Source: a virus | Taxonomy: Duplodnaviria; Heunggongvirae; Uroviricota; Caudoviricetes | Length of the DNA: 19,655 bases | IMG/VR virus record: IMGVR_UViG_3300029577_000167 | Span: 1 to 19,655 of that record | Reading direction: 5' to 3' (one strand) | Shown: positions 4,665 to 19,655 of the stretch, piece by piece | Position numbering within the stretch: the first letter of the stretch is position 1 | Layout of the letters: every line of letters begins with the position of its first letter | Made by a program: the position numbers and the translations under genes | Notes under the pieces: generated by a model | The model's input: the letters and a program-made list of their open reading frames with translations, nothing else | What the model was told of the DNA's origin: nothing | Database searches by the model: none

Positions 4665-4702
4665 GTTGATAATTGATAGGTAAGTGCTTATCTATTACCA
4701 TG

Positions 4703-4730: not shown

Positions 4731-4902
4731 TTGGGCTACACATAATAAGCATCGTAAAACGTAACGCCCACCGAGCCGCTGCCAGCTGCATGAAGCGCTG
4801 ACAAAGTTCGCTGTCGATTGCACTGGCCCGAGCCAGTTCGAATACCAAACCCACCAGCAATCCCGTACCAACTTCAAAACCCCCGTAGTCGAGTTCAATC
4901 CC

Positions 4903-5358
4903 CAGCTCAAAACCGTAAAAGTATTCAGTGATGGCTCCTGCCTCAAAAATCCGGGCGGGCCGGGCGGTTACGGCATCGTTCTCCAGTATCGAGGCGAAGA
5001 GCGCGAGCTTTCTGAGGGCTTCCACAGCACGACCAACAATCGGATGGAGATGATGGGCGCCCTGATTGCGCTGGAGCGTCTGAAGTACCCCTGCAACGTG
5101 ATCCTGCATTCCGACAGCCAGTATCTTAAAAACGGCATGACGCTCTGGATGAAAGGCTGGAAGCGTAACGGATGGATCACGTCTGAGAAGAAGCCAGTCA
5201 AAAACGTGGATCTCTGGAAACGTCTCGACGCGGCCGCCAGTCGTCATAATGTCCGCTGGAAGTGGGTTAAAGGCCATGCAGGTCATCGCGAGAACGAAAT
5301 GTGTGACCGTCTGGCGAAGATCGCCGCCTATTGTCGAGCGAGTCTCCGCTTTTGTTAA
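4903..5358 (+). CDS. rnhA: ribonuclease HI homologue; initiation codon unresolved
   Basis: ...[23 protein letters not shown]...[18 protein letters not shown]...HSDSQY...[16 protein letters not shown]...[20 protein letters not shown] aligns along the whole length with E. coli RNase HI as recalled. The frame is open from 4765, but no ATG/GTG/TTG exists in frame before 5044 (the codon at the position of the E. coli Met is CAG). Confidence 0.75.
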
Positions 5359-5603
5359 GTCCCCGCTGAATAATCCCCTCACCCGCGGTGAGCAGATGGA
5401 GCTGGCAAGGTGGTTTCTGCGTATCCATGAGCAGATGGAAGTTTTTAAACAGTTGCCGGATCTGCCCATTACAGACGGCCAAATTCAGTGTGCCACTTCA
5501 GTACGGTCGACGATGACAACGACGCAAACCTGCTTTTCGTCAAATCCGAAATCATAAAGTTGCGCAGGGAGAGAGAGAAATCGACGCAGAGCAGGCCCGC
5601 AAT

Positions 5604-5819
5604 ATGTGGGACGAGGCAGAAAACGCTGATGACGTAAAAGAAAGTTGCTGCTGTTTCGGTGTCGGTAACGAACTGCTGAGTCTGTTTGGTGACGATCCGT
5701 GGTATGCCGGTTGGCCAACGGTGCCAAACCCCAGATACCAATACCTGGAACGTATCATGAACGCGGTACGTAATGGGCTGAAAGAGCTTCACAATCAGAT
5801 GAGAGAAGCAATCGGTTAA
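5604..5819 (+). CDS. hypothetical small protein (71 aa)
   Basis: ORF with ATG start; no clear SD; contains a CCC triplet (SCCCFG). Confidence 0.35.
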   Translation: MWDEAENADDVKESCCCFGVGNELLSLFGDDPWYAGWPTVPNPRYQYLERIMNAVRNGLKELHNQMREAIG

Positions 5820-5857
5820 GTGCTATAGTCAGGCGCTTTTATATTTATGGAGTGAAT

Positions 5858-6556
5858 ATGAAAAATATCCTACTGGCATCATTGTTGGTGGCATCGCCGG
5901 CTGTATTTGCAGCCAGCTTTGACTGCCAAAAGGCTTCGGCAGAAATCGAACACAAAATCTGCGATAACGAACGCCTGTCAAAATTAGACGAACAACTTAG
6001 CTCTACCTATTCCAACGCACTCAAAGCAAACCCGGGGGACGCAGACGCCTTAAAGACGGTTCAGCGTCAATGGGTAAGTATGCGTGGAAAACTCACTGGT
6101 GATAAGACTCTGGAGTTGGCTTATCTAATCCAAATTAATGGCCTCAAGAGTTTGGATGGTTCGGCCAGCACTGCGGTGGTCAATGAGACACCAAAGCCTG
6201 TGCAGAAACAGCCTGAAGTTCAGGAAAAGACAAGCAAGGCAGACACAAAGCAGGCTGAGAGCGGTAAAAAGCTAACTCTGGAGTCATTCCGAGCTAAGTA
6301 TATTGAAGTTGACGGTGAATACTACAGCACGACATCCCTTCCCAGAGGGAGTTCGTTCTTGTTCACCTGCGCAAGTCGTATCGCAGATGACCAGGTGAAT
6401 ATTTGGAAGAAGGTGGCAGCCAAAGAGGGCAAGATCGATCTCTTCTTTGAACTTGAGAATCGAATACATACCGCAATGCTGAATGCCAATTTTCAGAAGC
6501 TAAATAGTGATTTAACTAAAACAGGCATTTGCGATCTGATTACTGCTGTTCCGTAA
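5858..6556 (+). CDS. secreted protein with LprI-like (DUF1311) domain
   Basis: Signal peptide MKNILLASLLVASPAVFA; FDCQKASAEIEHKICDNERLSKLDEQL...QRQW pattern typical of DUF1311 / lysozyme-inhibitor LprI N-terminal domain; GGAG 5 nt upstream of ATG at 5858 (ORF track starts at GTG 5852). Confidence 0.65.
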   Translation: MKNILLASLLVASPAVFAASFDCQKASAEIEHKICDNERLSKLDEQLSSTYSNALKANPGDADALKTVQRQWVSMRGKLTGDKTLELAYLIQINGLKSLDGSASTAVVNETPKPVQKQPEVQEKTSKADTKQAESGKKLTLESFRAKYIEVDGEYYSTTSLPRGSSFLFTCASRIADDQVNIWKKVAAKEGKIDLFFELENRIHTAMLNANFQKLNSDLTKTGICDLITAVP

Positions 6557-6564
6557 GCCAGATA

Positions 6565-6583
6565 AGGCCATTATTTGTGGCCT
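6565..6583. terminator. hairpin AGGCCA-ttatttg-TGGCCT, bidirectional terminator candidate
   Basis: Stem-loop between convergent genes 5858-6556 (+) and 6612-6815 (-); immediately followed by the palindrome TTAAACAATTTGTTTAA (6583-6599). Confidence 0.45.
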
Positions 6584-6611
6584 TAAACAATTTGTTTAAT
6601 TAGTGGTGTAA

Positions 6612-6815
6612 TTATTGGAATCCCAGGCGAACTAAATCCATTGGGCAGAACAGATCTTCCACACCTTCGATAGACACGCAGTCAGAGCGGCGTAATTGTT
6701 CTTCTGATTTGCCTTCTCCGCAGATTTCCTTGATGACTCCCGTTGCACCATTCGTTGCCACCATCACTCGGCTGCCGGTAGTGATAGTGTTACGGTTGCG
6801 ATCATAGGTCTTCAT
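6612..6815 (-). CDS. YdfZ-like small protein (67 aa)
   Basis: MKTYDRNRNTITTGSRVMV... resembles the E. coli YdfZ family as recalled; strong RBS AAAGGAGGAA upstream on the minus strand. Confidence 0.6.
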   Translation of the reverse strand: MKTYDRNRNTITTGSRVMVATNGATGVIKEICGEGKSEEQLRRSDCVSIEGVEDLFCPMDLVRLGFQ

Positions 6816-7002
6816 CGTTTCCTCCTTTCACATGGGTCAAATCAGGTTTCAAAAATTGCCGTTTTCCATGTAGGTGCGATTTGCAAAATCTCAAGCGCCA
6901 AAACAAATTGTTTTCACCATCTTGTTATTCAATTAACCCGTAAAGTTGACCAGTACCGTAATAAATACCACTGTTTATATGTGCAGTATTGCGAGGCGAG
7001 CA

Positions 7003-7269
7003 ATGGGCAGCAAGAATTCTAAATATGTGATCGTCTATAGGGGCGAAGCACTCAAGCACCTAATACCCGGACAGTTCGTTTTCTTCCAACGTGAAAAAGA
7101 ATACGGTGGGGGGTTCTGGCTTGGTAAAACGCATGAGGATGGGTTCGAATTTGTGCTGGAGCAACCCACTTCACTAAGTTACGGGCTTGCGTATCTGATC
7201 AGATTGTCGAGTGTCGAAGCCAGGTATATGGAGTTTGTTGATGACATAGACGACTTCAAACTCACCTAG
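7003..7269 (+). CDS. hypothetical protein (88 aa)
   Basis: ATG at 7003 preceded by GAGG; ORF track extends to 6946 without an RBS. Confidence 0.5.
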   Translation: MGSKNSKYVIVYRGEALKHLIPGQFVFFQREKEYGGGFWLGKTHEDGFEFVLEQPTSLSYGLAYLIRLSSVEARYMEFVDDIDDFKLT

Positions 7270-7310
7270 TCATCCCTTAAACATCTTGTTTTCTGCCTTT
7301 CGTTATTTGA

Positions 7311-7343
7311 GATAATAATACCAATAAGAAAACAAATTGTTTA
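7311..7343 (+). promoter_or_regulatory. conserved upstream cassette (type A), copy before gene 7355
   Basis: GATAATAATACCAATAAGAAAACAAATTGTTT, followed by AAGGAG and ATG at 7355. Confidence 0.55.
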
Positions 7344-7354
7344 AGGAGTTAATC

Positions 7355-7591
7355 ATGTTCGGAACCGCGAAAGAAATTATCGAAAAGCTGGAGAACTACC
7401 CAGAAGACGAGCCGCTGCTGATGGTGATGTGGCACAAGGAAGATGTAGGTGAAGGGCGACCAGACCTGACTGACGAACAGTGCGTTCAGGTTTTGCGAAA
7501 AATCAAAGAGTGCCATGATGCCAGCGTCGGCGTGAATTGGGATGTCATTTCTGACACGGCCAACATTCTGTTTCCAAAGGAGAAGGCATGA
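7355..7591 (+). CDS. hypothetical acidic protein (78 aa)
   Basis: AAGGAG RBS 6 nt upstream of ATG; stop overlaps the start of the next gene (ATGA). Confidence 0.6.
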   Translation: MFGTAKEIIEKLENYPEDEPLLMVMWHKEDVGEGRPDLTDEQCVQVLRKIKECHDASVGVNWDVISDTANILFPKEKA

Positions 7592-7908
7592 TGCTGAAAA
7601 TCACCGAATCGTATAAGACGGCGGTGATCAGCACCGCCCACGTCACGGCAGCGGATTCAGAACGGCTACCCATTGCCTGCTTCGACCCACTTACTGATCG
7701 CGGGTTGAATTGGGTACACGGTACACAGTATGGATGGATTGTTCGTGCTGGAATGCGAGGGAATGACTGGAAGGAAGAATTGCGTGATTACGGCATTTCC
7801 CAAGAGGCGATCTCTAACATACAGGCCATACGGGATGCCGGGTATGATTCGGTACAATTTGACTGTGATGCGGAGCTGGTGGATGGAATGCCAGCATGGG
7901 ATTGGTAG
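7588..7908 (+). CDS. hypothetical protein (106 aa), translationally coupled to upstream gene
   Basis: AAGGAGAAGG RBS; ATGA overlap with 7355-7591. Confidence 0.6.
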   Translation: MMLKITESYKTAVISTAHVTAADSERLPIACFDPLTDRGLNWVHGTQYGWIVRAGMRGNDWKEELRDYGISQEAISNIQAIRDAGYDSVQFDCDAELVDGMPAWDW

Positions 7909-7923
7909 ATATAACTACTAGCA

Positions 7924-8550
7924 ATGGCGGGAATAATTACCTGGAAAGTTGATATCATATACCCGCTTGTATTTCAAAATGGAATGGATGTAATGGAAAT
8001 CGATACTTTAGAAAAAAAATCAGTTAAAAACCTCTACGCGTGGCTTATAGCAATACTGCCGTTTGTTGTCAGCGTCCCCCCTGCTGAGTACGACAATTAC
8101 GTTATGGTGATTTCGTTCGTCATTGGGCTTGGACTGCTGGTCGCCGATCGCATGAATTTGACTGAGGCAGGCTATGAGCCACCATCATTCTTATGTGGGT
8201 TCTTTATCCCCCCTGTGTATCTCTGGAAACGAGCGACGGTTCTTGGAAGTAACCGACTGCTGTTTATCGTATGGATTGTTGCCTTTGCTGCATCATTTTT
8301 CGTGTATAGCTTCAACGCAGATTCAGCGCTTGAAGAAGCTGCTTGCCCTATAGTTACCACTATTCTGAAAGAAAATAACGGTTCAGAAGCATCTAAATGC
8401 ATGAAGGTAACAATTCAGGACAAAGTGACGGACAAGTTCTACAAAGCCACGGCTACACTGGATAACGGTAATGACATTAACATCACTATCGAAATGATCG
8501 GTGACGAGAATTTCTACGTTCGCGTGCCTAATTACTACCTAAACGACTAA
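7924..8550 (+). CDS. predicted membrane protein (about 3 TM segments; start uncertain, alternatives 7984/7993)
   Basis: Hydrophobic segments LYAWLIAILPFVVSV, VMVISFVIGLGLLVA, LLFIVWIVAFAASFFVY; soluble C-terminal region. Confidence 0.5.
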   Translation: MAGIITWKVDIIYPLVFQNGMDVMEIDTLEKKSVKNLYAWLIAILPFVVSVPPAEYDNYVMVISFVIGLGLLVADRMNLTEAGYEPPSFLCGFFIPPVYLWKRATVLGSNRLLFIVWIVAFAASFFVYSFNADSALEEAACPIVTTILKENNGSEASKCMKVTIQDKVTDKFYKATATLDNGNDINITIEMIGDENFYVRVPNYYLND

Positions 8551-8987
8551 CGGCTGCAACTCGTTGACATTGGCGGTCACAAATTGAGGATTTCTATAAG
8601 AGTCCGTTGATCGCCACTTCCCCCACCTCTCCAACCTACCCCAGCCCAGGGGTGACAAGGCATTTAAGCCAATTACACCCATAAGAAAACAAATAAATAA
8701 CACGTCAACGAAAAGTCAACGCTTTCCTCTGATTTGGTCTAAAAAGTTGACGTTTTCGCAAGCCATCTCTTATACCCAAAATCCTGCGCACCAGAATCCA
8801 TCTCCCTGCGACCAAAACGTCAAAAACGACTCGTGATATCACTCAAAAACAGAAGCGCTCAGAAGCGCTCCCGTTGCGTTATATTGGGCATCTAAACAAG
8901 TTGTTTTCAGGCATAAGAAAACAAGTTAACAACCCCCACAGGAAACCCAGAGACGCCATTACCCACAATCCCGGAAACACCCACCTC

Positions 8988-9073
8988 TTCCTGTCAGACT
9001 ACCGAAAAGACCCACCTCATTGCCCCAGGCTACAGACCACCCACCTAATATTCCCAGGCAACCGAGAACGCGG
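8988..9073 (+). repeat. three tandem 28-31-bp C/A-rich repeats (core CAGRCWACMGA...CCCACCT)
   Basis: Units 8988-9018, 9019-9046, 9047-9073; paralogous triplet at 12989-13074. Confidence 0.7.
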
Positions 9074-9646
9074 TTCGCACGCGCAAACCCCGATACGTCA
9101 TTACCCAATACACGGAGAAGAACAGCCAGAACGAAACCCCGGACAAACCCAGACAAGAACAGGAGCCGTCACAATCTCGTTTACCCACCATTACCCCGAA
9201 AGAGAGCGCAAATTCCTGAATAGCAGGGAACGCCATTACTTCATATGCGGAGAACAACTAAAGCGCCCTACTGCCATTACCCACACTTTCATCATTTCAC
9301 GTAAACGAAGAGAAAAGCGCACCTGCCATTACTCCATACACGGAGAAGAACACTCACCAAAACGACGAGAACAACCCAGACGAAAACACAGAGAAGAACC
9401 ACCTCAAGAAGAACGAAACCACATATGCCGGTAGAAAGAACAAACCACCCATTTCACCCAAAGGAATACTCGCCGTATAGAGCGTTATCAGAGGGAAGGT
9501 TTATGCCCACATAAGAGAGAAAATTCGTGGGAGGTATAAGTGGGAAGGGAAGGAGGGGTATCGCCACTTTTTCCGCATAAATTCAAGCCATAGTTTTCAT
9601 CCCCCGTAACGTCCCTTTCCACCCCTTCGGTCAGCCTTCGGGCCAT

Positions 9647-9825
9647 CCGGGAAAGCTATGTCCCTTTTCAGGAACGGGAGCGTCGCCGCAGGGAAAAGGC
9701 TTGAGGTTTTCAGGGAAACGGTGGGAATCCCGCTATACGAACCGGGGAAAGGCTGGCTGCCGGTCGGGAAACGGGTACATCCCGGTACAGAGTGAGGGAC
9801 GACTGCGGGAGCGGTGCGGGAAATC
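9647..9825 (+). repeat. GGGAAA(C/A)GG-type direct repeats, about 21-bp period
   Basis: CCGGGAAAGC 9647, CAGGAACGGG 9669, GCAGGGAAAAGG 9687, CAGGGAAACGG 9711, CGGGGAAAGG 9743, TCGGGAAACGGG 9763, GCGGGAAATC 9816. Confidence 0.65.
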
Positions 9826-10093
9826 TTCGGGAGTGCGCCTTACTCTTCACTCGCCTGAAAATCGCGGGGGAGTGTCATTCCCTCTCGTGCAGCTACTGGA
9901 CTCCATTCTGCCAGACCATCATTGGGTCTCAAGCTATTTCAGTAGGTTTTCGGGGAGAAGGATATTCTGCCCACCAGCCCCGTGGCGCGCGTAGAGCAGA
10001 ATATCGTAAATACTGGCTCCCGTGTCGTTCCCGGATATTCACTGCCCAGCCTGGCTTTCACGACATAAAATCCTTTTCCGCCTTTGTCTTATT

Positions 10094-10128
10094 GCGATAA
10101 TAACACCAACAAGTAAACAACATGTTTA
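10094..10128 (+). promoter_or_regulatory. conserved upstream cassette (type A) before gene 10160
   Basis: GCGATAATAACACCAACAAGTAAACAACATGTTTA; palindrome AAACAACATGTTT at 10115-10127. Confidence 0.55.
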
Positions 10129-10159
10129 GACGTTATATAAACGAAGTGAGGATGAAGAG

Positions 10160-10378
10160 ATGATTAAGATGCCTGTGACGGTTGAGGTGTGGGGCGTGGA
10201 TTCCCTGGCTGAGTGTCTGGATGCAGTGGGGCCGGAGTTGTACCGCAAGTTGTGGTCGTTCGTCCCGGCAGAAGGGGAATCGCCCAAAGGGAAGGATATC
10301 TGGCACCTGCTGAGTGAAGATGAAAAGCGGGAGCTGGTGGACGCGGTACACAGCGAGTTCCCGGGCGACGAAGATTAA
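10160..10378 (+). CDS. hypothetical small acidic protein (72 aa; 17 D/E vs 7 K/R)
   Basis: GAGG RBS 8 nt upstream; followed by hairpin terminator at 10385-10410. Confidence 0.6.
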   Translation: MIKMPVTVEVWGVDSLAECLDAVGPELYRKLWSFVPAEGESPKGKDIWHLLSEDEKRELVDAVHSEFPGDED

Positions 10379-10384
10379 GAGTGA

Positions 10385-10410
10385 GGCCACCAGCACGGTG
10401 GCTTTTGTCG
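10385..10410 (+). terminator. intrinsic terminator (GCCACC-agcac-GGTGGC + TTTTG)
   Basis: Hairpin and T-run immediately after the stop of 10160-10378. Confidence 0.6.
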
Positions 10411-10450
10411 CTATTAACCTCCGGGGCAGCGCAGCACCGTAACGATATAC

Positions 10451-10506
10451 TTTGTGGCCGTTTTCTTACTGGTATTGTTTACGCAATTCAGAAAACAACA
10501 TGTTTA
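10451..10506 (+). promoter_or_regulatory. conserved upstream cassette (type B, about 56 bp) before gene 10518
   Basis: TTTGTGGCCGTTTTCTTACTGGTATTGTTTACGCAATTCAGAAAACAACATGTTTA; near-identical to 10942-10997. Confidence 0.55.
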
Positions 10507-10517
10507 AGGATTGCGTT

Positions 10518-10847
10518 ATGTTTGCAAATATCGACATCAACCAAATCAAGAAAATGACTCAAAAAGAGTTTGACCAGTTTTATGAGTTAGAAGGTTGGTC
10601 TTCCACGCTGATCAATTCGCGCTGGGTGCTTGAGCTGATGACTCGTGATGATGCTCCTGCTTTGATTATTTGCGACCTGGGTGATGATGCTGACTTTATG
10701 GATATGAGCGAATTTTGTGTGGATACATACAACCGCAGCCAGAAGTACTACTTCACATGCGATAGCGAGAATGACGTGATTTCTAAGCTCTATCTTCACC
10801 TTGTCCAGCATTGGGACGTTCAGGAGTTCCTTGATGTATTCGCGTAA
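10518..10847 (+). CDS. hypothetical acidic protein (109 aa; 21 D/E vs 8 K/R)
   Basis: AAGGA RBS; ATG at 10518 (ORF track begins upstream at 10452, inside the cassette). Confidence 0.6.
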   Translation: MFANIDINQIKKMTQKEFDQFYELEGWSSTLINSRWVLELMTRDDAPALIICDLGDDADFMDMSEFCVDTYNRSQKYYFTCDSENDVISKLYLHLVQHWDVQEFLDVFA

Positions 10848-10941
10848 ACCCAACCAAAGCCAGCACCGCCTGCTGGCTTAACTTCTCTGTAGCCGCAGGG
10901 AAGAACCACCTTTAGATAATTCATGTGCCTGAGCAATATGC

Positions 10942-10997
10942 TTTGTAGCCGTTTTTACACTGGTATTATTTACGCCATTGAGAAAACAATTTGTTTA
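10942..10997 (+). promoter_or_regulatory. conserved upstream cassette (type B) before gene 11008
   Basis: TTTGTAGCCGTTTTTACACTGGTATTATTTACGCCATTGAGAAAACAATTTGTTTA. Confidence 0.55.
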
Positions 10998-11007
10998 CGG
11001 AGTGGTG

Positions 11008-11319
11008 ATGAATACTTCATTGGTGCTGGGTCTTGCTGAAGGTCAGGAGAGAAAAGAAAAACCAACCTTAATGGGGCATCTCACATTGCTGGATATCGTA
11101 GCGAATGGGACTTCTATCCGTCTGTTTCGTGAAAAAGCCATTACCTTCGACGCGGGCAATTTTACGCGCTATGTGATGGTAGTTCGTCGCCAGCGTGGAA
11201 GAGGGTGGATGTCGGTCCAGAAAATGTGGCCAGAGGACCAGCTTGAACTGGCGCTGATGGAAGCCAACCGTGTCGCCCAACAAGAGATCCAACGAGCGTC
11301 TGTTCAGGCGGTAGCTTAA
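11008..11319 (+). CDS. hypothetical protein (103 aa)
   Basis: GGAG 5 nt upstream of ATG 11008; terminator at 11354-11382. Confidence 0.55.
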   Translation: MNTSLVLGLAEGQERKEKPTLMGHLTLLDIVANGTSIRLFREKAITFDAGNFTRYVMVVRRQRGRGWMSVQKMWPEDQLELALMEANRVAQQEIQRASVQAVA

Positions 11320-11353
11320 ACATGTGCAAGCAGTAGTTAGTCGAATGTACGAC

Positions 11354-11382
11354 AGCCCCGCCAATCCTTCGGGGCTTTTTTG
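11354..11382 (+). terminator. intrinsic terminator (AGCCCC-gccaatccttc-GGGGCT + TTTTTT)
   Basis: GC-rich hairpin followed by a 6-T run. Confidence 0.7.
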
Positions 11383-11440
11383 TATTGTAAGTACTTACTT
11401 ATGATAATAAAATTAAAAATTAAACACTAAGGAGAGTGAA

Positions 11441-11836
11441 ATGACCGTTAAACGCGAAAATCTGACCCTGGATATGTATTATGCATCAGAGACGGAAAAT
11501 GGAGACAAAGTTGCAAAAATTACAATTGTGCTACGCGATAATGCCTCCGGCGAAGAAGTTCACACCAGTACCTTAACTCGCACCGGCGAGGCCACAAAGG
11601 GAAAATATTCGGTGCGTTACCAAAGCATCAGTAATGCTTCTGACCCTTTACTGATAAAACTGGAAACTCATTTCCGTGGCGCGGATCAGACGTTGTTTGA
11701 AAATTTGATGAAAAAGGTCGATGCGGTTTATACATCGAGTTTAAATACCAATAGTACCTGGATGGGACAACACGGTCTGCGAATAATCTCCGGCGAAAAG
11801 ATCGACACCATTGTCCCTGAAAGCGTATTCGCTTAA
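11441..11836 (+). CDS. hypothetical protein (131 aa)
   Basis: AAGGAGAG RBS; AT-rich leader containing the perfect palindrome GTAAGTACTTAC (11387-11398); terminator at 11847-11872. Confidence 0.6.
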   Translation: MTVKRENLTLDMYYASETENGDKVAKITIVLRDNASGEEVHTSTLTRTGEATKGKYSVRYQSISNASDPLLIKLETHFRGADQTLFENLMKKVDAVYTSSLNTNSTWMGQHGLRIISGEKIDTIVPESVFA

Positions 11837-11846
11837 TCCTCTTTGA

Positions 11847-11872
11847 ATGGCGCGTAAACCGCGCCATTTTCT
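11847..11872 (+). terminator. intrinsic terminator (ATGGCGCG-taaacc-GCGCCAT + TTTTCTT)
   Basis: Hairpin plus T-rich tail after stop at 11836. Confidence 0.65.
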
Positions 11873-11953
11873 TATTCCCGATAACAATTTGTTTTCTGCC
11901 TTATCTGATTTGTGAAAATGATTTCACTGAAGCAACTTAATAAGGATACCATC

Positions 11954-12328
11954 ATGGGACTTGATATCTATATCGAGACGCAGCCTAAAAACGATCTGAA
12001 TAACGAGGCATCCAGAAAGCAGGTTGCTTACTTCCGTAAGTTCAATGCGCTCGTTGGGTGGATGGAGCGCAACGTAGGTGAAGTCGAAAATTGTGAGCTT
12101 TTAGAATTAACGATGAATGACATTTGTTTTCTGAAGGCTCATTTGATGCACATAAACGAAAGTAATTGCGAAGTGTACTTACCTACCCGGGAAGGTTTTT
12201 TCTTCGGCAGTCAGGAGTACGATGAAGGTTACTGGCATGACGTGGATAAGCTGAAAAAACTTGTGGAAGACCTGATCAGGAACCACGACTTTCACAATAA
12301 CAGACTGACGTTCCGTGCCTGGTGGTAA
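11954..12328 (+). CDS. hypothetical protein (124 aa)
   Basis: AAGGA RBS before ATG 11954; shortened cassette copy (CGATAACAATTTGTTTTCTGCC) at 11871-11900. Confidence 0.55.
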   Translation: MGLDIYIETQPKNDLNNEASRKQVAYFRKFNALVGWMERNVGEVENCELLELTMNDICFLKAHLMHINESNCEVYLPTREGFFFGSQEYDEGYWHDVDKLKKLVEDLIRNHDFHNNRLTFRAWW

Positions 12329-12330
12329 AT

Positions 12331-12474
12331 ATGGGCGATTTCAAGAAACGCCTGAAGGAGAGAGCCGAGATGGTCAGAAAGCGAAACGCCTCTTCTGTCA
12401 TAAGATACGCAAGGCAGTTTAGTCGCAACAACAAATCAGTTGAGGAAAAGATCCTTAGCGTAATCGGGCGATAA
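12331..12474 (+). CDS. possible small basic protein (47 aa), starts 2 nt after the upstream stop
   Basis: MGDFKKRLKERAEMVRKRNASSVIRYARQFSRNNKSVEEKILSVIGR; below the ORF-track size cutoff; followed by hairpin 12481-12506. Confidence 0.3.
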   Translation: MGDFKKRLKERAEMVRKRNASSVIRYARQFSRNNKSVEEKILSVIGR

Positions 12475-12610
12475 TTATTAAGGCCACCAGCATTGGTGGT
12501 CTTAAATGACTTTTAATAACCGAAGGTTAGTTTGAAACCTGGCTATCAACTTCCAGAACCTTTCTTGTGTATTCAGCCTGTATTAACTTCTTTTATGCCT
12601 TATCTACACT

Positions 12611-12645
12611 GCGATAATTACACCAACAAGAAAACAATATGTTTA
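12611..12645 (+). promoter_or_regulatory. conserved upstream cassette (type A) before gene 12664
   Basis: GCGATAATTACACCAACAAGAAAACAATATGTTTA; palindrome at 12632-12644. Confidence 0.55.
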
Positions 12646-12663
12646 CGCAGTGAGGATATGCTC

Positions 12664-12945
12664 ATGACTGATTTCACCATTACCCCTAAAGCACAAAATG
12701 TATTCCTTGAATCATGGCTGGACTTGCCGGAAACAGAACAGCAAGAAATGGATCATGTGGAATATGACGAGCAGGTAAGCACGCGATTCTTCCACTTTGA
12801 GGGCTGCGTTTACGACATTGCCGACTTCATGCGAGATGACCGCTTCCCTGAATGGCACGCAAGCTATCCACTAAACGCCTTCGCCATGCTGATGATCCGT
12901 GTGGATGATTCAGGGGATACCATCGACATCGGTCTGCTCCACTAA
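12664..12945 (+). CDS. hypothetical small acidic protein (93 aa; 20 D/E vs 5 K/R)
   Basis: GAGG 8 nt upstream of ATG 12664; hairpin 12951-12977 after the stop. Confidence 0.6.
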   Translation: MTDFTITPKAQNVFLESWLDLPETEQQEMDHVEYDEQVSTRFFHFEGCVYDIADFMRDDRFPEWHASYPLNAFAMLMIRVDDSGDTIDIGLLH

Positions 12946-12988
12946 AGAGTAAGGCCACCAATGCTGGTGGCCTTAAATGACCATCCTG

Positions 12989-13074
12989 TTTCCCGCAGGC
13001 TAAAAACACCAACCTCTTACCTCCAGGCAACCGACAAACCCACCTGTTCCCGTCCGGCTACCGCAACTTTCCAC
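12989..13074 (+). repeat. three tandem about 29-bp C/A-rich repeats, paralogous to 8988-9073
   Basis: TTTCCCGCAGGCTAAAAACACCAACCTC / TTACCTCCAGGCAACCGACAAACCCACCTG / TTCCCGTCCGGCTACCGCAACTTTCCAC; CCAGGCAACCGA core matches 9055-9066 exactly (12/12). Confidence 0.7.
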
Positions 13075-13094
13075 TTTGACGCCTTATTCGTACA

Positions 13095-13130
13095 ACGATA
13101 ATTAACACCAACAAGAAAACAATTTGTTAT
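13095..13130 (+). promoter_or_regulatory. conserved upstream cassette (type A) before gene 13150
   Basis: CGATAATTAACACCAACAAGAAAACAATTTGTTAT; a possible -35 TTGACG at 13075-13080. Confidence 0.55.
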
Positions 13131-13149
13131 TTACGATAAGGAATTAATC

Positions 13150-13632
13150 ATGAATTTTATCGCTACTGTAAACGCACCCGCACATGGCAATATCGCTGTA
13201 ACGTTCTCTGATATTGAAAAACGAGTACTTGGTGCATGGCGCGACAATGAGACGGTAGAACTGTCAGCACAAGAAAAATGCATTATTGCACGCGACATCA
13301 TTTGCAAACGTCGTTACTCACGGGTAATTGAGAAAGCGTATGTCGCAAATTCTGGCTTCGGAACATTTGTCTTCCCGGTACGCTCCGGGCGATTCTGCCA
13401 GTCCAAGCTGATTGAGTTCGCTACGCAGATTTCTGTCTGGATTAAAACTCAATCGTCGTTCAAATTTTCCGACGATGAAGCAGTATCGCAGGGGATGCGG
13501 ATCGCCAACAATGCAATAAAATGCAAAAACATTACGTATGCCGCTGGCGTTGACACATGGAAACTGTTTTGCGCTAACTTTATGCTGAATGTATACGCAA
13601 GCAACCGCATCCACATCCTTGATGGCGTGTAA
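13150..13632 (+). CDS. hypothetical protein (160 aa)
   Basis: AAGGA RBS; hairpin GGGCC-agaaac-GGCCC + TTTCTCT at 13641-13662. Confidence 0.6.
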   Translation: MNFIATVNAPAHGNIAVTFSDIEKRVLGAWRDNETVELSAQEKCIIARDIICKRRYSRVIEKAYVANSGFGTFVFPVRSGRFCQSKLIEFATQISVWIKTQSSFKFSDDEAVSQGMRIANNAIKCKNITYAAGVDTWKLFCANFMLNVYASNRIHILDGV

Positions 13633-13677
13633 CTGAGAAGAGGGCCAGAAACGGCCCTTTCTCTATAGCCACCAGCT

Positions 13678-13818
13678 GCCGCAGGGAAATTTTCAGAAAC
13701 GGCGAGGAACGCATTCATGAGCCGACGGGAAACGGCCAAGATTTTTTCGGGAAACGGCGGGGGTCGCCTTTATGTAGAAAACTGAGCGGGAGAAACCCGG
13801 AATCGCGCCAGAAATTGC
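13678..13818 (+). repeat. second cluster of GGGAAACGG-type repeats, about 22-bp period
   Basis: GCCGCAGGGAAATTTTC 13678, CAGAAACGGCG 13694, CGACGGGAAACGGCC 13723, TTCGGGAAACGGCGG 13747, GCGGGAGAAACCCGG 13785, CGCCAGAAATTGCG 13805. Confidence 0.6.
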
Positions 13819-14231
13819 GTAGCGGCGCTGGGGTAGCGCTGGTGGGGGTTTCAGCCCCTGGGCCATCCAGATAGCTTTCGCTATGTGATTATGTGAATCC
13901 GTGGGTAAATCACTGTAAGCGCGTACACGTTGCCCAACGTGGCAATCATATGCGAGCGGATACAAAACAACACAAAGAGCCGATCCGCGCCGACAAATAA
14001 ACGCGGATCACATAGCAAGACTAAAAGCCAATGATTAACCATACTCTATAGCGCAATATAACGCGTTTTAAGCGCGTTAATGTGTTAAGTAATGTGTATG
14101 TACTAACAAGGATATAAAAGCGCGTCTATGGCGTTATTTTGGTGCTTATTTTTATGTTGTTGGAGCGAGTTAAAGACAATAAAAAACGCGCTAATGATGG
14201 CGCGTTATGGTGGGAGTATTGGAAACGAAAA

Positions 14232-14250
14232 AAGCGCCCATAGTGGGCGC
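14232..14250 (-). terminator. 19-bp perfect palindrome AGCGCCCATAGTGGGCGCT, terminator for gene 14257-14487
   Basis: Flanked by AAAAAA on the plus strand (a U-run on the minus-strand transcript); identical copy at 14507-14525. Confidence 0.6.
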
Positions 14251-14256
14251 TCGATT

Positions 14257-14487
14257 TTATTTGTGTAAACTAATTTTGAATCCCATTTCTACAAACGCTT
14301 TTAACATTAAAAATATATCAGCGTCATTCACGTCTGCTTTTTTTCGCTCCTGGTCGTTCAATAAGTCAATTTTGCGCGTTGTTTCATTTATAAACTCGAC
14401 TGCGCGCCCAGCGATCCCAGCGATCCCAGCGATGCGATTAACATAATATTCATTATGGACGTTAACGCCAGCGATAAGAACAAACAT
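14257..14487 (-). CDS. hypothetical small protein (76 aa) containing IAG-IAG-IAG from a 9-bp tandem repeat
   Basis: AAGGAG RBS 8 nt upstream on the minus strand; low-GC region. Confidence 0.5.
   Translation of the reverse strand: MFVLIAGVNVHNEYYVNRIAGIAGIAGRAVEFINETTRKIDLLNDQERKKADVNDADIFLMLKAFVEMGFKISLHK
14407..14433. repeat. perfect 3x tandem repeat of CCCAGCGAT (in frame inside ORF 14257-14487)
   Basis: Units at 14407-14415, 14416-14424, 14425-14433. Confidence 0.9.
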
Positions 14488-14506
14488 GATTAAGCTCCTT
14501 AAAACT

Positions 14507-14525
14507 AGCGCCCATAGTGGGCGCT
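14507..14525 (-). terminator. second copy of 19-bp palindrome AGCGCCCATAGTGGGCGCT, terminator for gene 14538-15188
   Basis: Identical to 14232-14250; lies 13 bp past the stop of the 216-aa gene. Confidence 0.55.
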
Positions 14526-14537
14526 ATATCCATCTAA

Positions 14538-15188
14538 TTACGCTTTGAAAGCATCAGCCAGATAGTTATAAAAATCATTTTTAACGAAGCGATATTGCTG
14601 TGATCCGTTTTTCGCTGCACCCATTCCTTTGATTTTTTCGACCAGTCCCAGACGTTCGCAAAGATTGATAAGCTGGTTGGCTTGAGTGTATCCTGCGTCT
14701 AATTTTATTTCGTTGGCTTTTTTCGCTTCATTCATTAAATCGAAAACAGCGCCATTGGTGAACGTGTCGATCTCGTCGTTAATCATATCGATTAAAGCGA
14801 ATACACGAGATCCGGACATATCAGCGACGGAATAAACACACTTTCCAGCTTTAATAGATTTAACCAGATAAACCAGTTTTTCGAGTGAATAGCTATTGGT
14901 CATAGCTTCACGGAAAAACGCTTCAGGTGCTTGTTTACTTGCTTTAATCGCGTAGTAAAAGATACCAGCTAATTTCTCATCATTAACAGCGTTTAAAACG
15001 TTGTTGGTGAAGTATGCTAGTTTGGTAGACGCTGCAAGCATGTTAGCTTTATCCGCTTTTGTGTGTGTACCATTTTTATAATGATTGTTATAAGTCTGAG
15101 TAGCGTTGTTGGCTGCAACTTGTAACTCATTAGCGATAACCACAGCAGCGTCGATAATGGATTTTTTAGAAATGGTAACGTTAGACAT
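14538..15188 (-). CDS. hypothetical protein (216 aa) in AT-rich acquired segment
   Basis: AAGGA RBS 8 nt upstream on the minus strand; N/K/A-rich composition distinct from neighbours; no motif recognised. Confidence 0.6.
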   Translation of the reverse strand: MSNVTISKKSIIDAAVVIANELQVAANNATQTYNNHYKNGTHTKADKANMLAASTKLAYFTNNVLNAVNDEKLAGIFYYAIKASKQAPEAFFREAMTNSYSLEKLVYLVKSIKAGKCVYSVADMSGSRVFALIDMINDEIDTFTNGAVFDLMNEAKKANEIKLDAGYTQANQLINLCERLGLVEKIKGMGAAKNGSQQYRFVKNDFYNYLADAFKA

Positions 15189-15461
15189 GATGTTAATCCT
15201 TATGTAATATTGATAACTTAATTTGTTGTTTGTTTATCGTTAGCGTGTTCGCTTTCGATGTGACTAATTATCGATATACAGAAATTAAAATCAAGAGTTT
15301 TTTATGCGGGAACGAAAAAATTTTTCTCCAATAAAAATCAAAATCTTAGAAATAAAACGCGTTTTCTCGAAGGTGTTGCCTAAATAAATTCTCTATTCAG
15401 CCAATCACCCTTATATATTTAAATTGGAATCGAGTTTGTGGGAAATAAATATAACGGGAAG

Positions 15462-15498
15462 TGACGAATAAAATAATAACCGGACTTAGCCGGTTATT
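15462..15498 (-). terminator. intrinsic terminator of the helicase-side operon
   Basis: AATAACCGG-acttag-CCGGTTATT hairpin (15475-15498) followed on the minus strand by a U-rich tract. Confidence 0.6.
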
Positions 15499-15510
15499 AC
15501 CCTTATAGAT

Positions 15511-16038
15511 TTAAAACGGTAAAATCCGTTCGACCCAATCGAACATGGCGACTGTCTTCCTACCGTCCCCCATGTTGAGTGTGACCTGACAAGCGTCAAC
15601 GCCTGAAGACACCCCCTCAATTTCACGGCCATCCGCCATGTAGACCCTTATAGACTTCTGCATCTCATGGGCCTGGCGACAAATTTTGAAGAAATCACGG
15701 CGAGATGGCCGATTGTCCACATAGTCTGGGTGTATCGTTGTCCGACCCGTGAAGTCGTGTGCAATGCCTTCTGTCACACCTGATTCAATCGTGCTGATTC
15801 GCTCAAGTGGGAGCCTTATACGATTATCTTTGTCGAACGGGGCAGGGCAAAGGTCGACCTTGTTGCGTGACGACATGAGACCCTGAACATACATGCAGAA
15901 CACCTGACCATCTTCCATCGTGACCCTTACAGGAATAAGAGACTTGCGCCAGAACATCAGCGCTTTCTCCACGTTGGTGTAATCGCGCGGCCAGACTTCT
16001 GCAGGAATCCCGTAGGTGATGTCAGTAATATTCGTCAT
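15511..16038 (-). CDS. hypothetical protein (175 aa) with internal duplication of an RVxMxDG module
   Basis: Start ATG at 16038 lies 2 nt after the upstream stop (ORF track extends to 16080). PVRVTMEDGQVF...LERISTIE and SIRVYMADGREI...FDWVERI look like tandem copies. Confidence 0.5.
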   Translation of the reverse strand: MTNITDITYGIPAEVWPRDYTNVEKALMFWRKSLIPVRVTMEDGQVFCMYVQGLMSSRNKVDLCPAPFDKDNRIRLPLERISTIESGVTEGIAHDFTGRTTIHPDYVDNRPSRRDFFKICRQAHEMQKSIRVYMADGREIEGVSSGVDACQVTLNMGDGRKTVAMFDWVERILPF

Positions 16039-16042
16039 ATCG

Positions 16043-16465
16043 TCACAGTGTCGTTGGTAAGATATCGATGTCACCAGCATTACTGGTGAACACCCGGAAG
16101 ACTTTCGTCTCGCCAGCTTTGGTAATCGTCTCGCGTTCCTGACGAGCAGGATTCAGTGCGCACAGCCCAGCGTCTTCGAGTGAGGCGCCAACAATCCATT
16201 CTCCGGCATCCAGATGAAAAGTGACTTTTTCACCTGTTTCCAGTTTTGCAACGGTTTCGCCATTGATGAAGATCGATGCGTCGCAACCGGCGCCCACCAT
16301 GCTTTTATCTCTCATAACCACCAGCGTCGATGCCGCCGGAGATTGGTATTTGAATATTCTGGTCTGCGGTGCTGGCTTTGCCTCAGAGACAGGAATAGGA
16401 CGAGATTGACATGCAGTGATAAGTAACGCGGAGGCAGCAACCAGAGGAAGTAATACGTGTTTCAT
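16043..16465 (-). CDS. predicted lipoprotein (140 aa)
   Basis: MKHVLLPLVAASALLITAC: signal peptide with lipobox LITAC; ORF track start at 16501 is upstream of the likely Met. Confidence 0.6.
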   Translation of the reverse strand: MKHVLLPLVAASALLITACQSRPIPVSEAKPAPQTRIFKYQSPAASTLVVMRDKSMVGAGCDASIFINGETVAKLETGEKVTFHLDAGEWIVGASLEDAGLCALNPARQERETITKAGETKVFRVFTSNAGDIDILPTTL

Positions 16466-16524
16466 TGTACCGAACAAAATCCTTATCTTTACGAAAATCA
16501 TGGCGCCTCAAGGCGCCATAATGC

Positions 16525-16803
16525 TCAATCGAGGCGTTTTAGAATATCGGCCAGATCTTCTTTGGTCATACCCGAGTTTTCGTAAATCTTCATGACCTTT
16601 TCACGAGCCTTTGCAGTAGTCTCTAATGACGTAGCTATCTTATCAAAATCACCCATCGTCATATTGGACAGCACCAGATTGATGATGTCTGCTTTTGACA
16701 GTTTTATGCTGCGTTCACGCAGTCGATTCTGAAAGGTCTCTAGTTTATCGTTTGCTTTTTCGGTTAACTTAACCTGGCAGTTAATAGCGCGTTTCTCGCT
16801 CAT
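16525..16803 (-). CDS. hypothetical small helical protein (92 aa)
   Basis: Starts 9 nt downstream of the helicase stop; charged helical composition. Confidence 0.5.
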   Translation of the reverse strand: MSEKRAINCQVKLTEKANDKLETFQNRLRERSIKLSKADIINLVLSNMTMGDFDKIATSLETTAKAREKVMKIYENSGMTKEDLADILKRLD

Positions 16804-16812
16804 GCTTACTCT

Positions 16813-18366
16813 CTATCCAAAACAGTGAAATCGAATGTGCTGCCAACCGGCAAGACCCCCCTCGGCAAACCCAGGCGTCGTGTCGATAATGTGTTTCCGC
16901 TCATATGAATGCGACATGAGGTATTTGTTGCTCACGTCGATGAAGTCGGTAATAAAGCACACGTTAGCCTGATTTTTCTTGGCTCGTAAGCCACGACCGA
17001 CACGCTGTCTCATTTCAACTTCTGCTTTCCCGCCACCACCCAGAATCACCGCGCCTACGCTTGGAACGTCGACACCAACATCCAGAATGGTTGAACCAAT
17101 GAGAACATCTATCTTGCCTGCCGCCAGACTATTAAGTTTTGCTTGTCGGGTAGTCTGGTTTGATTCTCCGTAGATGAAATCGACCTTGAGGCCACTCTCT
17201 TTCATCATTTCCATCAAGATCTGACCATGACGCTTCAGACGAACCAATGTCATACAGTTCAGACCGTGACTCTTGTACATTAGCGCTTCACGCACAATAG
17301 CTTCGTTGCGGCCCAGATTATAGACGATGCCTAACTGATAGGCTTTCTGGTAAGCCGTGCTCATTCCAACCCTAAAATTCAGGTGTTTTGAAGCAAGTTC
17401 GACTCTAATCCGCGCCTCATCTGGAGTGTACGCGATTTTATGATATAAAAAGTATGGTTTCGCTAAAATACCTCTGTCGATCAAATATTTCTCCGTTACT
17501 TTTATCTCGATGCGACCCGCAACGGCCATGAGACGCATATTTGCTTCAGTCGAGTCCTTCATGAACGGCGTAGCTGTCAGCGCCAGACGGTAGTCGGCAT
17601 TGGTACACAACCGGGCTATATCGTAGAAGTTTGAGCCGGATGATTCGTGCGCTTCTTCCAGAATCAGCAGAGAAACGCTGGACAGGAAGCGCTTAACCAA
17701 TTCCCGGCGTTTCAGGTGATACTGTTTTTTCTCTGGAGATGCGTCGCGCGACGGCTCTTCGAGAAAACTAGCAAGGGTCTGAACCGTGGCAACGTTGATA
17801 TGGCGCGATACCTGGAACTCACCAGATCCAATCACCCCAACTTTCTGACCTTTCAGCCACGGCTCGCCATTCTTCGCGCGGTAGTCGATGGATTTCTGGA
17901 AGTTCTCTGCCATCTGGAACATCAGAACCGATCGCGTGGTTAAAAACAGCGTCATACGACCAATGCGAGCAGCAGCCTTACACGCTACGTTCGATTTACC
18001 GCCACCCGTCGCAATCTGGGCAATCATCATCCCTTCGCGCACCAGTGTTTCCACTGTCTGATCCTGATACGCGTAGTCCGGGTTATACGGGAATGGGTTA
18101 ACCACCGGATTCGGCTTACCCAGCGCGGGAGCTTTTTCCTTGCGAACATGCACGCATTTGATGCCAGCTTTCAGAAGATTGGTCGCAACTGGCTTCGCAA
18201 ACCCAGCCGGGAACGCGTTTTTACTCCAGTTGAACATCGTGCTGGTCCCTTTCCAGTCACCAGCCTCCACTTCATAGCTCAACATCTCCTGAACAAGCCG
18301 TTTCACGTTGTCATCAGCGCCAGAAATCAGCGCATTGACTGCATTTGATACAATCCGAACAGTCAT
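16813..18366 (-). CDS. superfamily-2 DNA helicase (DEAD/DEAH-box type, phage-like)
   Basis: Walker A IATGGGKSNVACK, motif II LLILEEAHESSG (DExH variant), LALTATP (motif III-like), arginine-finger-like QRVGRGLR near the C-terminus. Confidence 0.85.
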   Translation of the reverse strand: MTVRIVSNAVNALISGADDNVKRLVQEMLSYEVEAGDWKGTSTMFNWSKNAFPAGFAKPVATNLLKAGIKCVHVRKEKAPALGKPNPVVNPFPYNPDYAYQDQTVETLVREGMMIAQIATGGGKSNVACKAAARIGRMTLFLTTRSVLMFQMAENFQKSIDYRAKNGEPWLKGQKVGVIGSGEFQVSRHINVATVQTLASFLEEPSRDASPEKKQYHLKRRELVKRFLSSVSLLILEEAHESSGSNFYDIARLCTNADYRLALTATPFMKDSTEANMRLMAVAGRIEIKVTEKYLIDRGILAKPYFLYHKIAYTPDEARIRVELASKHLNFRVGMSTAYQKAYQLGIVYNLGRNEAIVREALMYKSHGLNCMTLVRLKRHGQILMEMMKESGLKVDFIYGESNQTTRQAKLNSLAAGKIDVLIGSTILDVGVDVPSVGAVILGGGGKAEVEMRQRVGRGLRAKKNQANVCFITDFIDVSNKYLMSHSYERKHIIDTTPGFAEGGLAGWQHIRFHCFG

Positions 18367-18430
18367 AAACCTCTTTCCTTCGTGCCTTTTGTATGGTAAT
18401 TGGCTATTATGTTAAGTAAGTGCTTACACA

Positions 18431-19318
18431 ATGTATTGTATCAAAAATATGGATGTGAAAATTACGATTCTACAGGTGGAAGTCGCGAACCTGCGTCCGA
18501 ACCCCTGGAATACCAACTCCGTTGGGGCGCAAAACTTCGAAAAACTGAAAGGTTCCATCGAAAAGTTGGGCTTTTTTAAGCCAATTCTGGCGCGAGAGCT
18601 GGACGGCGGCATTTTTGAAATTCTCGGTGGCGAACATCGCTGGCGTGCCGCGATGGAGCAGGGCATTTCAACGGTTCCCGTCATCTCCGTGGGCAAAATT
18701 AACGACCTGGTGGCCAAACAGATGTCCCTCGTCGACAACGAGCGCTACGGCGAAGACGATCAGGTCGCTTTGCAGCGCTTAATCGAAGAAATCCAGTCTG
18801 AAATCGACTACCGGTTGTCCGATATCGCCCCGTATGACGACGAAATGGCGGCAACACTCGCCAAAGCATCCGTTATCGATCTTGAAGCGCTGGAAGCGCT
18901 CTCCCGTGGCGATGACGAGCCGGTCGATGAGGACAAACGCGAGAAAACCGAGCGAGTCGGCGCTGAACACCAGACGATGCGCTTCAAGGTGACGTTTGAT
19001 GCGTCAGATCGGGTCATCGAACAGAAGACTCTCGAAACCCATGAGGTCGTCGAGTTTGAGCTGTCGAGTGTGTTCGACCTGATGGGCGTGCAGCTGCCGT
19101 ACCGCCAGATCATCAAAAACACATGCCCGTGGAGATACCGCGGACCAGAGTGCGGCTACACCGGTCCGTACTTCGACAAAAACAACCAGCAAACCACCAT
19201 GTCAGGAGCGGATTGCTGCACGAAACGTTACGACTCATGCAACGCACGGCGCAACTACTTTGCCAATGGCGTAATCCACTTTGGCGGGTTCATTGGGGCA
19301 ACGCGTTATGGGCAATAG
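18431..19318 (+). CDS. ParB-like N-terminal domain protein with C-terminal lambda gpL-like cysteine module
   Basis: N-terminus LRPNPWNTN...ILARELDGGIFEILGGEHRWRAAMEQGISTVPVI...VDNERYGED fits the ParB/Srx fold (GxxRxxA); C-terminus NTCPWRYRGPECGYTGP...CCTKRYDSC...FGGF parallels the lambda minor tail protein L C-terminus (NTCTWTYRGDECGYSGP...CSKCLSGC...FGGF) as recalled. Start uncertain (18431 or 18449). Confidence 0.75.
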   Translation: MYCIKNMDVKITILQVEVANLRPNPWNTNSVGAQNFEKLKGSIEKLGFFKPILARELDGGIFEILGGEHRWRAAMEQGISTVPVISVGKINDLVAKQMSLVDNERYGEDDQVALQRLIEEIQSEIDYRLSDIAPYDDEMAATLAKASVIDLEALEALSRGDDEPVDEDKREKTERVGAEHQTMRFKVTFDASDRVIEQKTLETHEVVEFELSSVFDLMGVQLPYRQIIKNTCPWRYRGPECGYTGPYFDKNNQQTTMSGADCCTKRYDSCNARRNYFANGVIHFGGFIGATRYGQ

Positions 19319-19655
19319 AGTATTCCCGGAGCTTGGTTCGGACGTTATGCAGGAAATCTATCTGACAGCCATTAAACGTTATTGGTGCTCATACGCACTC
19401 GGTTGCGATTGGCTCACATGGACACACCATCACCGTTAACGCTGCTGGTAACGCGGAAAACACCGTCAAAAACATCGCATTTAACTATATTGTGAGGCTT
19501 GCATGATTAATCTCATTCTTTCTGCTCCAGTAAAAGAAATGACTGAAGCATTTAAGCGAGTATTCGCAAATGCAGACAGGTAATGCTGCCAACTTACTGA
19601 TTTAGTGTATGATGGTGTTTTTGAGGTGCTCCAGTGGCTTCTGTTTCTATCAGCT

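Follow-up and report, generated by a model that had tools for sequence, protein, structure and literature searches.

Why should two families of short intergenic repeats each occur twice, in the same order and a few kilobases (kb) apart, in the DNA of a tailed virus? The question is raised by record IMGVR_UViG_3300029577_000167 of IMG/VR (Caudoviricetes), analysed here over positions 1 to 19,655 as one strand read 5' to 3' (the window, 19,655 nucleotides, nt). One of the families is C/A-rich and the other G-rich, and each has a cluster at a left locus (locus 1) and at a right locus (locus 2) on either side of an array of small genes. The repeats are real, family-specific and under strong selection, and we tentatively read both families as predicted phased DNA sites for one or more sequence-specific proteins at the two borders of this variable gene array, where they would likely control or insulate transcription. 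That one protein might bind repeated sites at both loci had been among the suggestions of a preliminary description of this DNA. The binding-site part is favoured here because selection acts on the motifs while their spacers drift, the sites are in helical phase, they are restricted to two loci and they show no RNA structure; judged from the sequence, one protein for both families cannot be told apart from two.

The C/A-rich unit spans ~30 nt (ACCCACCTCTT-N5-CAGGCTACCGA) and stands in tandem at both loci on the + strand. At locus 1 (8974-9067), a repeat search delimits three units of the form CCCACCT..-N5-CAG[G/A]C[T/A]AC[C/A]GA, which are kept in relatives; locus 2 (12981-13066) also has three, the first of them degenerate and beginning at ~12981, and the third reaching the -35 hexamer of the promoter that follows. 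The unit starts given by the repeat search are 8974, 9005, 9034, 13003 and 13033, with a period of 29-31 nt and 65-79% identity between units. In a local alignment, 9005-9068 and 12975-13037 agree at 73% of 64 nt (E=1.6e-7), which bears out the earlier claim that a triple C/A repeat recurs at a second locus, and the core match of 12 positions out of 12 is indeed exact, the 12-mer CCAGGCAACCGA being found at 13023-13034 and at 9054-9065, one base from the position first given. An exact 12-mer repeat is by itself the chance expectation in 19.6 kb, so what makes the C/A repeat significant is the longer alignment together with its conservation in relatives, not the 12-mer alone. The arrays contain 40-41% C and 14% G. 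Their core, AAACACCCACCTCTTACCGCCAGGCTACCGAA, is near-invariant even at loci whose protein is 67% identical, and the number of units at locus 2 differs among relatives by whole ~30-bp steps: four units (L051), an extra unit a (L106) or one unit fewer (L092). Directly upstream of the locus-2 array lies a hairpin with a poor U-tract (12950-12975, then TTAAAT), which carries a Chi site (GCTGGTGG) at 12963-12970; in relatives it shows loop variants, with Chi on either strand.

The G-rich sites, of the type GGGAAACGG, are grouped on the + strand at 9685-9830 and at 13678-13775. Exact GGGAAACGG occurs four times, always on the + strand (9713, 9766, 13727 and 13749), and allowing one mismatch raises the count to 10, where 4.25 are expected and 3/200 shuffles reach as many. 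Recurrence of this family at the second locus, also claimed previously, is confirmed by the alignment of 9685-9725 with 13721-13761 (71% identity, E=0.003). At locus 1 the block is headed by GCCGCAGGGAA and comprises GGGAAAAGG at 9691, GGGAAACGG at 9713, GGGAAAGGC at 9745 and GGGAAACGG at 9766, with degenerate copies thereafter. At locus 2 four sites can be named: A (GCCGCAGGGAAA, 13678), B (CAGAAACGG, 13693), C (CCGACGGGAAACGGCC, 13721) and D (TTTTCGGGAAACGGC, 13745), with a short GC hairpin and TTTATG after D. The motif GCCGCAGGGAA is exact at 9685, 10892 and 13678, so that its three occurrences stand as first described, with two of them moved by one base; allowing one mismatch, 0.32 matches are expected, and three were reached in 2/200 shuffles. 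Its placement just after a terminator hairpin holds at 10892 and 13678, but no convincing terminator precedes 9685. The copy at 10892-10916 (+ strand), after the terminator of the second cassette gene, is a solitary hybrid remnant, GCCGCAGGGAAGAACCACCTTTAGA, only partly retained in a close relative (GCCGCAGGGCA). Spacing within the clusters is regular: C and D at locus 2 are 22 bp apart in 46 of 52 distinct sequences, and the locus-1 sites of relatives follow a 44/22/31/22-bp pattern. Distances of 22, 31 and 44 bp equal two, three and four helical turns, so proteins bound to these sites would share one face of the DNA.

Both loci carry the two families in the same order, on the same strand and with the same spacing. 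The offsets between their matching parts are 3969-4036 bp, from which the common order, orientation and internal distance follow, and the C/A array and the G-rich sites are ~0.7 kb apart at each locus. Between the two families, local alignment finds no similarity of locus 1 to locus 2. At locus 2 this interval holds the phrog_1641 gene (13150-13632, + strand, 160 amino acids, aa), the last of the cassette, which is flanked by both families as had been noticed. The gene is preceded by a sigma-70-type promoter (TTGACG ... GATAAT) with the palindromic operator AAACAATTTGTTA (13075-13129, + strand) and followed by a conserved terminator hairpin, GGGCC-AGAAAC-GGCCC and then TTTCTCT (13640-13660, + strand), in a region 85% identical among lineages. 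Its protein is restricted to the SSU5-like phage-plasmid family, and the predicted structure, which is confident (predicted local distance difference test, pLDDT, 87), has no solved relative. That locus 1 might be a decayed copy of this gene was considered and rejected, as no profile match was found there in six frames.

The window belongs to this same family. The 5.4 kb around the repeats match 775 plasmid records from Klebsiella, Escherichia, Enterobacter, Yersinia, Salmonella and Citrobacter, nearly all of them non-mobilisable, and also the phages SSU5, Cyrano and PhiR41_1; on the strength of these matches the window is assigned as part of a phage-plasmid of the SSU5/pHCM2/pMT1 type. SSU5, pHCM2, Cyrano, plasmids of Klebsiella, Enterobacter and Citrobacter, and IMG/VR contigs all have both loci, collinear and on one strand. 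Through the phrog_1641 gene 76 further loci were retrieved, and the locus-2 C/A array is present at all that reach far enough upstream. In pTB212, a complete relative of 110 kb, both repeat families are confined to the two loci. A scan of 2.9 million viral contigs in IMG/VR with the pattern CCACCTCTT-N5-CAGGCTACC returned 89 stretches, with the C/A unit nearly confined to contigs of this family: most lie on contigs already found through phrog_1641 (six new contigs were left uninspected); where a contig has two C/A sites, they are on one strand and 2.9-3.6 kb apart. The SSU5/pHCM2 literature was searched for repeats, iterons and a lytic origin, and no description of these arrays was found.

Conservation was expressed as mean pairwise identity among 12 lineages. 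C/A units a and b reach 85%, G-rich sites A, C and D 85-91% and site B 78%, against 63-70% for the spacers between the G-rich sites. By the same measure, operators of the known type reach 88%, and the adjacent gene has 84-88% at codon positions 1 and 2 and 58% at position 3. The difference between motifs and spacers indicates that selection acts on discrete motifs, which by these sequence comparisons appear about as conserved as non-synonymous codon positions while the spacers drift. These figures already contradict the notion that the repeats are neutral remnants of an old segmental duplication with no present function. The identical order and spacing at both loci are what such a duplication would leave behind, but the motifs are held at a non-synonymous level while the sequence that separates them has lost all similarity, and no trace of phrog_1641 persists at locus 1; we regard this explanation as very improbable.

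Do the motifs act as DNA or as RNA? At a permissive threshold, Rfam gives no match in the repeat region; RNAalifold on 52 sequences of the locus-2 G-rich sites yields -8.4 kcal/mol with a covariation term of -0.13, equivalent to none; and folds of both strands of all four arrays are no better than those of shuffles (z -0.03 to +1.1). A structured RNA is therefore unlikely, and the helical-repeat phasing together with conservation limited to the motifs points to proteins on duplex DNA. An unstructured RNA is another matter, and it provides the main rival to binding sites on DNA. The C/A arrays might be rut (Rho utilisation) sites that stop read-through from leaky hairpins before the next promoter, with the complement of the G-rich sites doing likewise for leftward transcripts; recognition of the motifs would then take place on RNA, for instance by a FljA-family protein encoded 1.8 kb away. 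The composition suits Rho loading: C is 40% and G 14% at 12976-13070 (minimum free energy -9.6 kcal/mol, z +0.9), and 41% and 14% at 8960-9070; the C/A arrays have 23-25 YC dinucleotides per 100 nt compared with 11 for the window, and as + strand RNA they are nearly unstructured (-9.0 to -9.6 kcal/mol, z +0.35 to +0.9). The hairpin before the locus-2 array has a poor U-tract, and leftward transcription is predicted into both G-rich regions, at locus 2 from the minus-strand operon ending at 14257 and at locus 1 from a promoter-like site on the minus strand at 9932-9905 (TTGAGA-N16-(TG)CAGAAT), directed into the G-rich and C/A regions. Both hexamers of this site are kept in the Klebsiella, Citrobacter and S. 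Newport lineages, with a variable spacer; pHCM2-type lineages have an 80-aa minus-strand gene in its place.

The FljA-family protein (15511-16080, minus strand) is a full-length member of PF03614 (E=2e-95), and the flagellin 5' leader contains the 12-mer TGAGCCGACGGG of 13718-13729 unchanged, as was confirmed in enterobacterial genomes. This similarity does not establish a link to the regulator: the match is real but not significant, being equalled by 10/100 shuffles, and it is specific to the E. coli lineage, most lineages reading AACCGAAGGG instead. More generally, rut sites need no conservation at the nucleotide level, whereas the C/A core is near-invariant; the strict 22/31/44-bp spacing of the G-rich sites is a trait of duplex DNA and not of unstructured RNA; and the G-rich complement is just moderately C-rich (31-40% C, 22-23% G). 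Composition alone does not account for conservation of single nucleotides. Rho-dependent insulation with recognition on RNA is kept in second place, as an unlikely account. The ops element of RfaH (GGCGGTAGnnTG) was also tried: the C/A minus strand matches it with two mismatches per unit, at a frequency compatible with chance (20 observed, 12.9 expected) and in an orientation antisense to every neighbouring gene.

The preliminary description had further proposed that shared linkers at module boundaries are junctions for homologous recombination. The small genes form a run on the + strand (10160-13632), each furnished with a promoter, an operator palindrome (AAACAAnnTGTTT) and a terminator hairpin, and among relatives the block between the two loci varies from 743 to 3796 bp. 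When the ends of homology blocks were mapped between the window and 87 related loci, they clustered at the promoter/operator linkers of the cassettes (10125-10174, 10475-10524, 10925-10949, 11400-11424, 11900-11924 and 12575-12599), at terminators (12500-12524 and 14250-14274) and on the outer margins of the blocks that hold the repeats (12950-12999, 42 events; 13750-13774, 16; 9800-9824, 12; also 8550-8574). At least seven different left contexts join the locus-2 C/A array at CCGCAGGC, the SSU5_116 insertion in phage SSU5 being one. Thus the proposal is supported in part: breakpoints do abut the repeats on their outer side, but most of them lie on promoter/operator linkers and Chi-bearing terminators.

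Chi is itself abundant, with 11 sites in the window against 0.55 expected (405, 4851, 7875, 9971, 10333, 10387, 12484, 12963, 13669, 13838 and 16318), eight of them within 7875-13845, and 30 in pTB212 against about 3. It forms part of terminator hairpins (GGCCACC-N4-GGTGGCC) and occurs on both sides of the locus-2 G-rich sites: on the minus strand at 13669-13676, abutting the first site (CCACCAGC TGCCGCAGGGAA) and kept in nearly all relatives, and on the + strand at 13838-13845, where it is retained in four otherwise non-homologous spacer lineages. The operator AAACAAnnTGTTT has 11 sites in the window (6585, 6901, 7279, 7330, 8894, 10115, 10493, 10984, 11882, 12632 and 13117), that is, 22 strand-matches where 0.85 are expected, and pTB212 has about 19 sites, among them some that precede the DnaB-like helicase and terminase operons. 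Two promoter layouts are seen, one with the operator ~13 nt past the -10 element (TGCGATAAT) and one in which the operator itself supplies a TTGTTT -35 element.

It could be argued from this map that the repeats are linkers that serve chiefly to help related elements exchange gene modules by homologous recombination, given the breakpoints clustered on the left margin of the locus-2 C/A array and on the right margin of each G-rich block, the many left contexts, the hypervariable block between the loci and the Chi enrichment. The breakpoints, however, stop at the edges of the repeat blocks, none lying inside, and a recombination substrate does not need selection confined to motifs with neutral spacers. 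Furthermore, in every lineage the spacers and flanks of the paralogous units are specific to the locus (ACCGC for locus 2, CCTGT or CCTGC for locus 1), which shows that no gene conversion or homogenisation has occurred between the loci, and 73% identity over 64 nt is a poor substrate for RecA. The repeats behave as conserved islands at the borders of a hypervariable block, not as crossover substrates; the ~60-bp promoter/operator segments and Chi are the likelier promoters of exchange, and a primary linker role for the repeats is accordingly given a small chance. Integron attC sites were rejected too, the units being direct repeats without a hairpin and the sole integrase of the intact relative lying ~57 kb away.

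A DNA-level alternative to transcriptional control would make both loci a cis-acting DNA transaction site of the lytic cycle, whether a bipartite origin resembling that of satellite phage P4, whose ori and crr both bear iterons, a packaging region or an injection-control region, the phased repeats serving in each variant as an assembly platform. The G-rich sites do have iteron spacing, in a 22-bp register, and the same sites occur at two loci a few kb apart; 250 bp to the right of locus 2, an AT-rich segment (14020-14200, 36-37% GC) includes three 13-mers; adjoining genes for replication and recombination encode ParB-N proteins and a UvsW-like DEAD/DEAH helicase; the G-rich sites have inward-facing Chi sites on either side; and pMT1, which is not known to make phage, has no locus 1. 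Against this, the C/A period of 29-31 bp is atypical for iterons (17-22 bp), and neither kind of array contains the RepA-iteron sequence: the iterons of RepA, tried as the same sites, proved to be of the unrelated ATCCACTGTAGNGAG type and to flank repA itself. Consensus DnaA boxes are absent near either locus (two weak TTACCCACA lie inside locus 1), no AT-rich element adjoins the locus-1 G-rich sites, and the GC skew over the whole genome of a relative follows gene orientation, with no switch or origin signal here. In addition, the distance between the loci varies freely, and the terminase genes of the intact relative are 8-13 kb off. We therefore consider a lytic-cycle transaction site quite unlikely.

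Returning to protein-bound sites at the borders of the array, the arrangement suggests how they could work. Each locus presents two to four C/A units with a ~30-bp period and then GGGAAACGG sites ~0.7 kb rightward, and proteins on one DNA face could build a higher-order complex. The loci form the left and right borders, in the same orientation, of the hypervariable, operator-controlled small-gene array, the right border also enclosing the one conserved gene, phrog_1641. Complexes at these borders might delimit and control transcription: the locus-2 C/A array is placed between a weak hairpin and the phrog_1641 promoter, with its last unit up to the -35 hexamer, and the G-rich sites are placed where convergent transcription would meet. 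The two loci may also pair and loop out the array, in the manner of iteron "handcuffs". The binder or binders are most likely encoded by the phage-plasmid backbone, and the FljA-family regulator is an attractive candidate.

Several observations weigh against this interpretation. The composition of the C/A arrays is that of Rho-loading sites, so that a function at the RNA level is possible without any DNA-binding protein. No binding protein was found: no DNA-binding fold can be recognised in the predicted structure of the phrog_1641 protein, and Pfam gives no informative domain for the proteins encoded nearby, the FljA-family regulator excepted. FljA itself has been described as blocking translation of fliC (flagellin) mRNA and not as acting on DNA (PMC2652032). 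The C/A array of locus 1 has no promoter downstream, and a role as a promoter-upstream element thus cannot fit both copies, while a 30-bp period does not amount to a whole number of helical turns. Finally, locus 1 is absent from pMT1, which has nrdAB and IS1541 in its place, and, as far as the 4-6 kb at hand show, from five more relatives; hence it is not essential for plasmid maintenance. A bolder version is conceivable, in which one protein binds both families, pairs the loci and loops the hypervariable early/accessory array, as a bipartite nucleoprotein device peculiar to SSU5-like phage-plasmids that acts either as a silencing-insulation switch between plasmid and lytic states or as an ori/crr-like lytic origin; we hold it to be about as improbable as the transaction site considered above.

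Further features of the window concern its history and surroundings. The repA gene (1111-2166, Rep3 domains) lies at the left end with its own iterons, just 7 kb from the repeats. In the last open reading frame (ORF), 18431-19318, a ParB-N domain is fused with the C-terminus of tail protein L; in pTB212 the repA, ParB-N and tail-L genes are far apart, and the fusion is a deletion junction, from which it follows that the window derives from a truncated element. The record closest to the window is a 52-kb plasmid. A weak Rfam match to "RsaJ" at 997-1091 adjoins repA and ends in a stem-loop with the iteron-like CACTGTAGTGAG. The small-gene run is preceded by a 1.5-kb non-coding block (8557-10060) and followed by the convergent minus-strand operon, which encodes the UvsW-like helicase, the FljA-family regulator, phrog_1513 and phrog_1585. 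The block is kept across the phage-plasmid family at 67-94% identity, although pMT1 lacks it and has nrdAB and IS1541 instead. Further repeats occur in it: GTTGAC(G) has five copies at 8563-8752, and GCCATTAC(C/T) another five at 8957-9332, of which three fall within a 26-nt unit. A strong C>G and A>T skew extends over 8550-9450. A + strand ORF at 8874-9434 was dismissed as a gene, its frame being broken by indels of non-multiples of three in the Klebsiella and S. Newport lineages; its scarcity of stop codons is due to a T- and G-poor composition. In the convergent gap to the right, the AT-rich stretch extends over 14020-14230 (36-37% GC), with the 13-mers AAGCGCGTTAATG, AAGCGCGTCTATG and AAACGCGCTAATG, and relatives have palindromes of the type ACGCGCC-N6-GGCGCGT in the same unannotated gap.

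Phage-plasmids of the SSU5/pHCM2/pMT1 type are common in E. coli, Klebsiella, Salmonella and Yersinia pestis, and some carry resistance genes. To our knowledge, almost nothing is known of their regulatory DNA. Few non-coding sequences of the family are as constrained as these arrays, which stand at either border of its most variable gene block; they offer a precise sequence marker for SSU5-like elements, and their binder would be a handle on how the variable block is controlled or insulated and might bear on lytic replication. Taken with the Chi-bearing terminators and the operator that recurs through the genome, they show in concrete terms how the gene array is shuffled.

Known systems resemble this one in part. 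Like the iteron clusters of P1 (incC-repA-incA) and P4 (ori/crr), the window has tandem direct repeats in a ~22-bp helical register, in two clusters a few kb apart, one of which flanks a gene, and with a variable number of units; it differs in having two unrelated motif families and not one, RepA iterons of another sequence and location, no AT-rich unwinding element at locus 1 and no initiator linked to the sites. The parC1/parC2 sites of pB171 and the scattered centromeres of N15 are likewise direct-repeat arrays at more than one locus, bracketing genes, and these centromere-like arrays also affect transcription; here, in contrast, there is no adjoining partition ATPase or centromere-binding gene, and the arrays are much shorter (2-6 sites). 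With nutL and nutR of lambda the window shares two similar loci per genome, a C-rich and G-poor context after a weak terminator, and in the C/A units a CCTCTTAC resembling boxA (CGCTCTTA). A nut site of the lambda type was rejected all the same, because the boxA likeness is partial, the C/A arrays show no boxB-type hairpin or structural signal, the locus-2 array is upstream of its promoter, the wrong side for nut, and both loci are on the same strand. Lastly, as in the boundary linkers of mosaic phages, short conserved non-coding sequences stand at module borders and are abutted by breakpoints; but in this family the linker role belongs mainly to the ~60-bp promoter/operator segments and the Chi-bearing terminators, whereas the two repeat families are discrete, phased and placed at the outer borders only.

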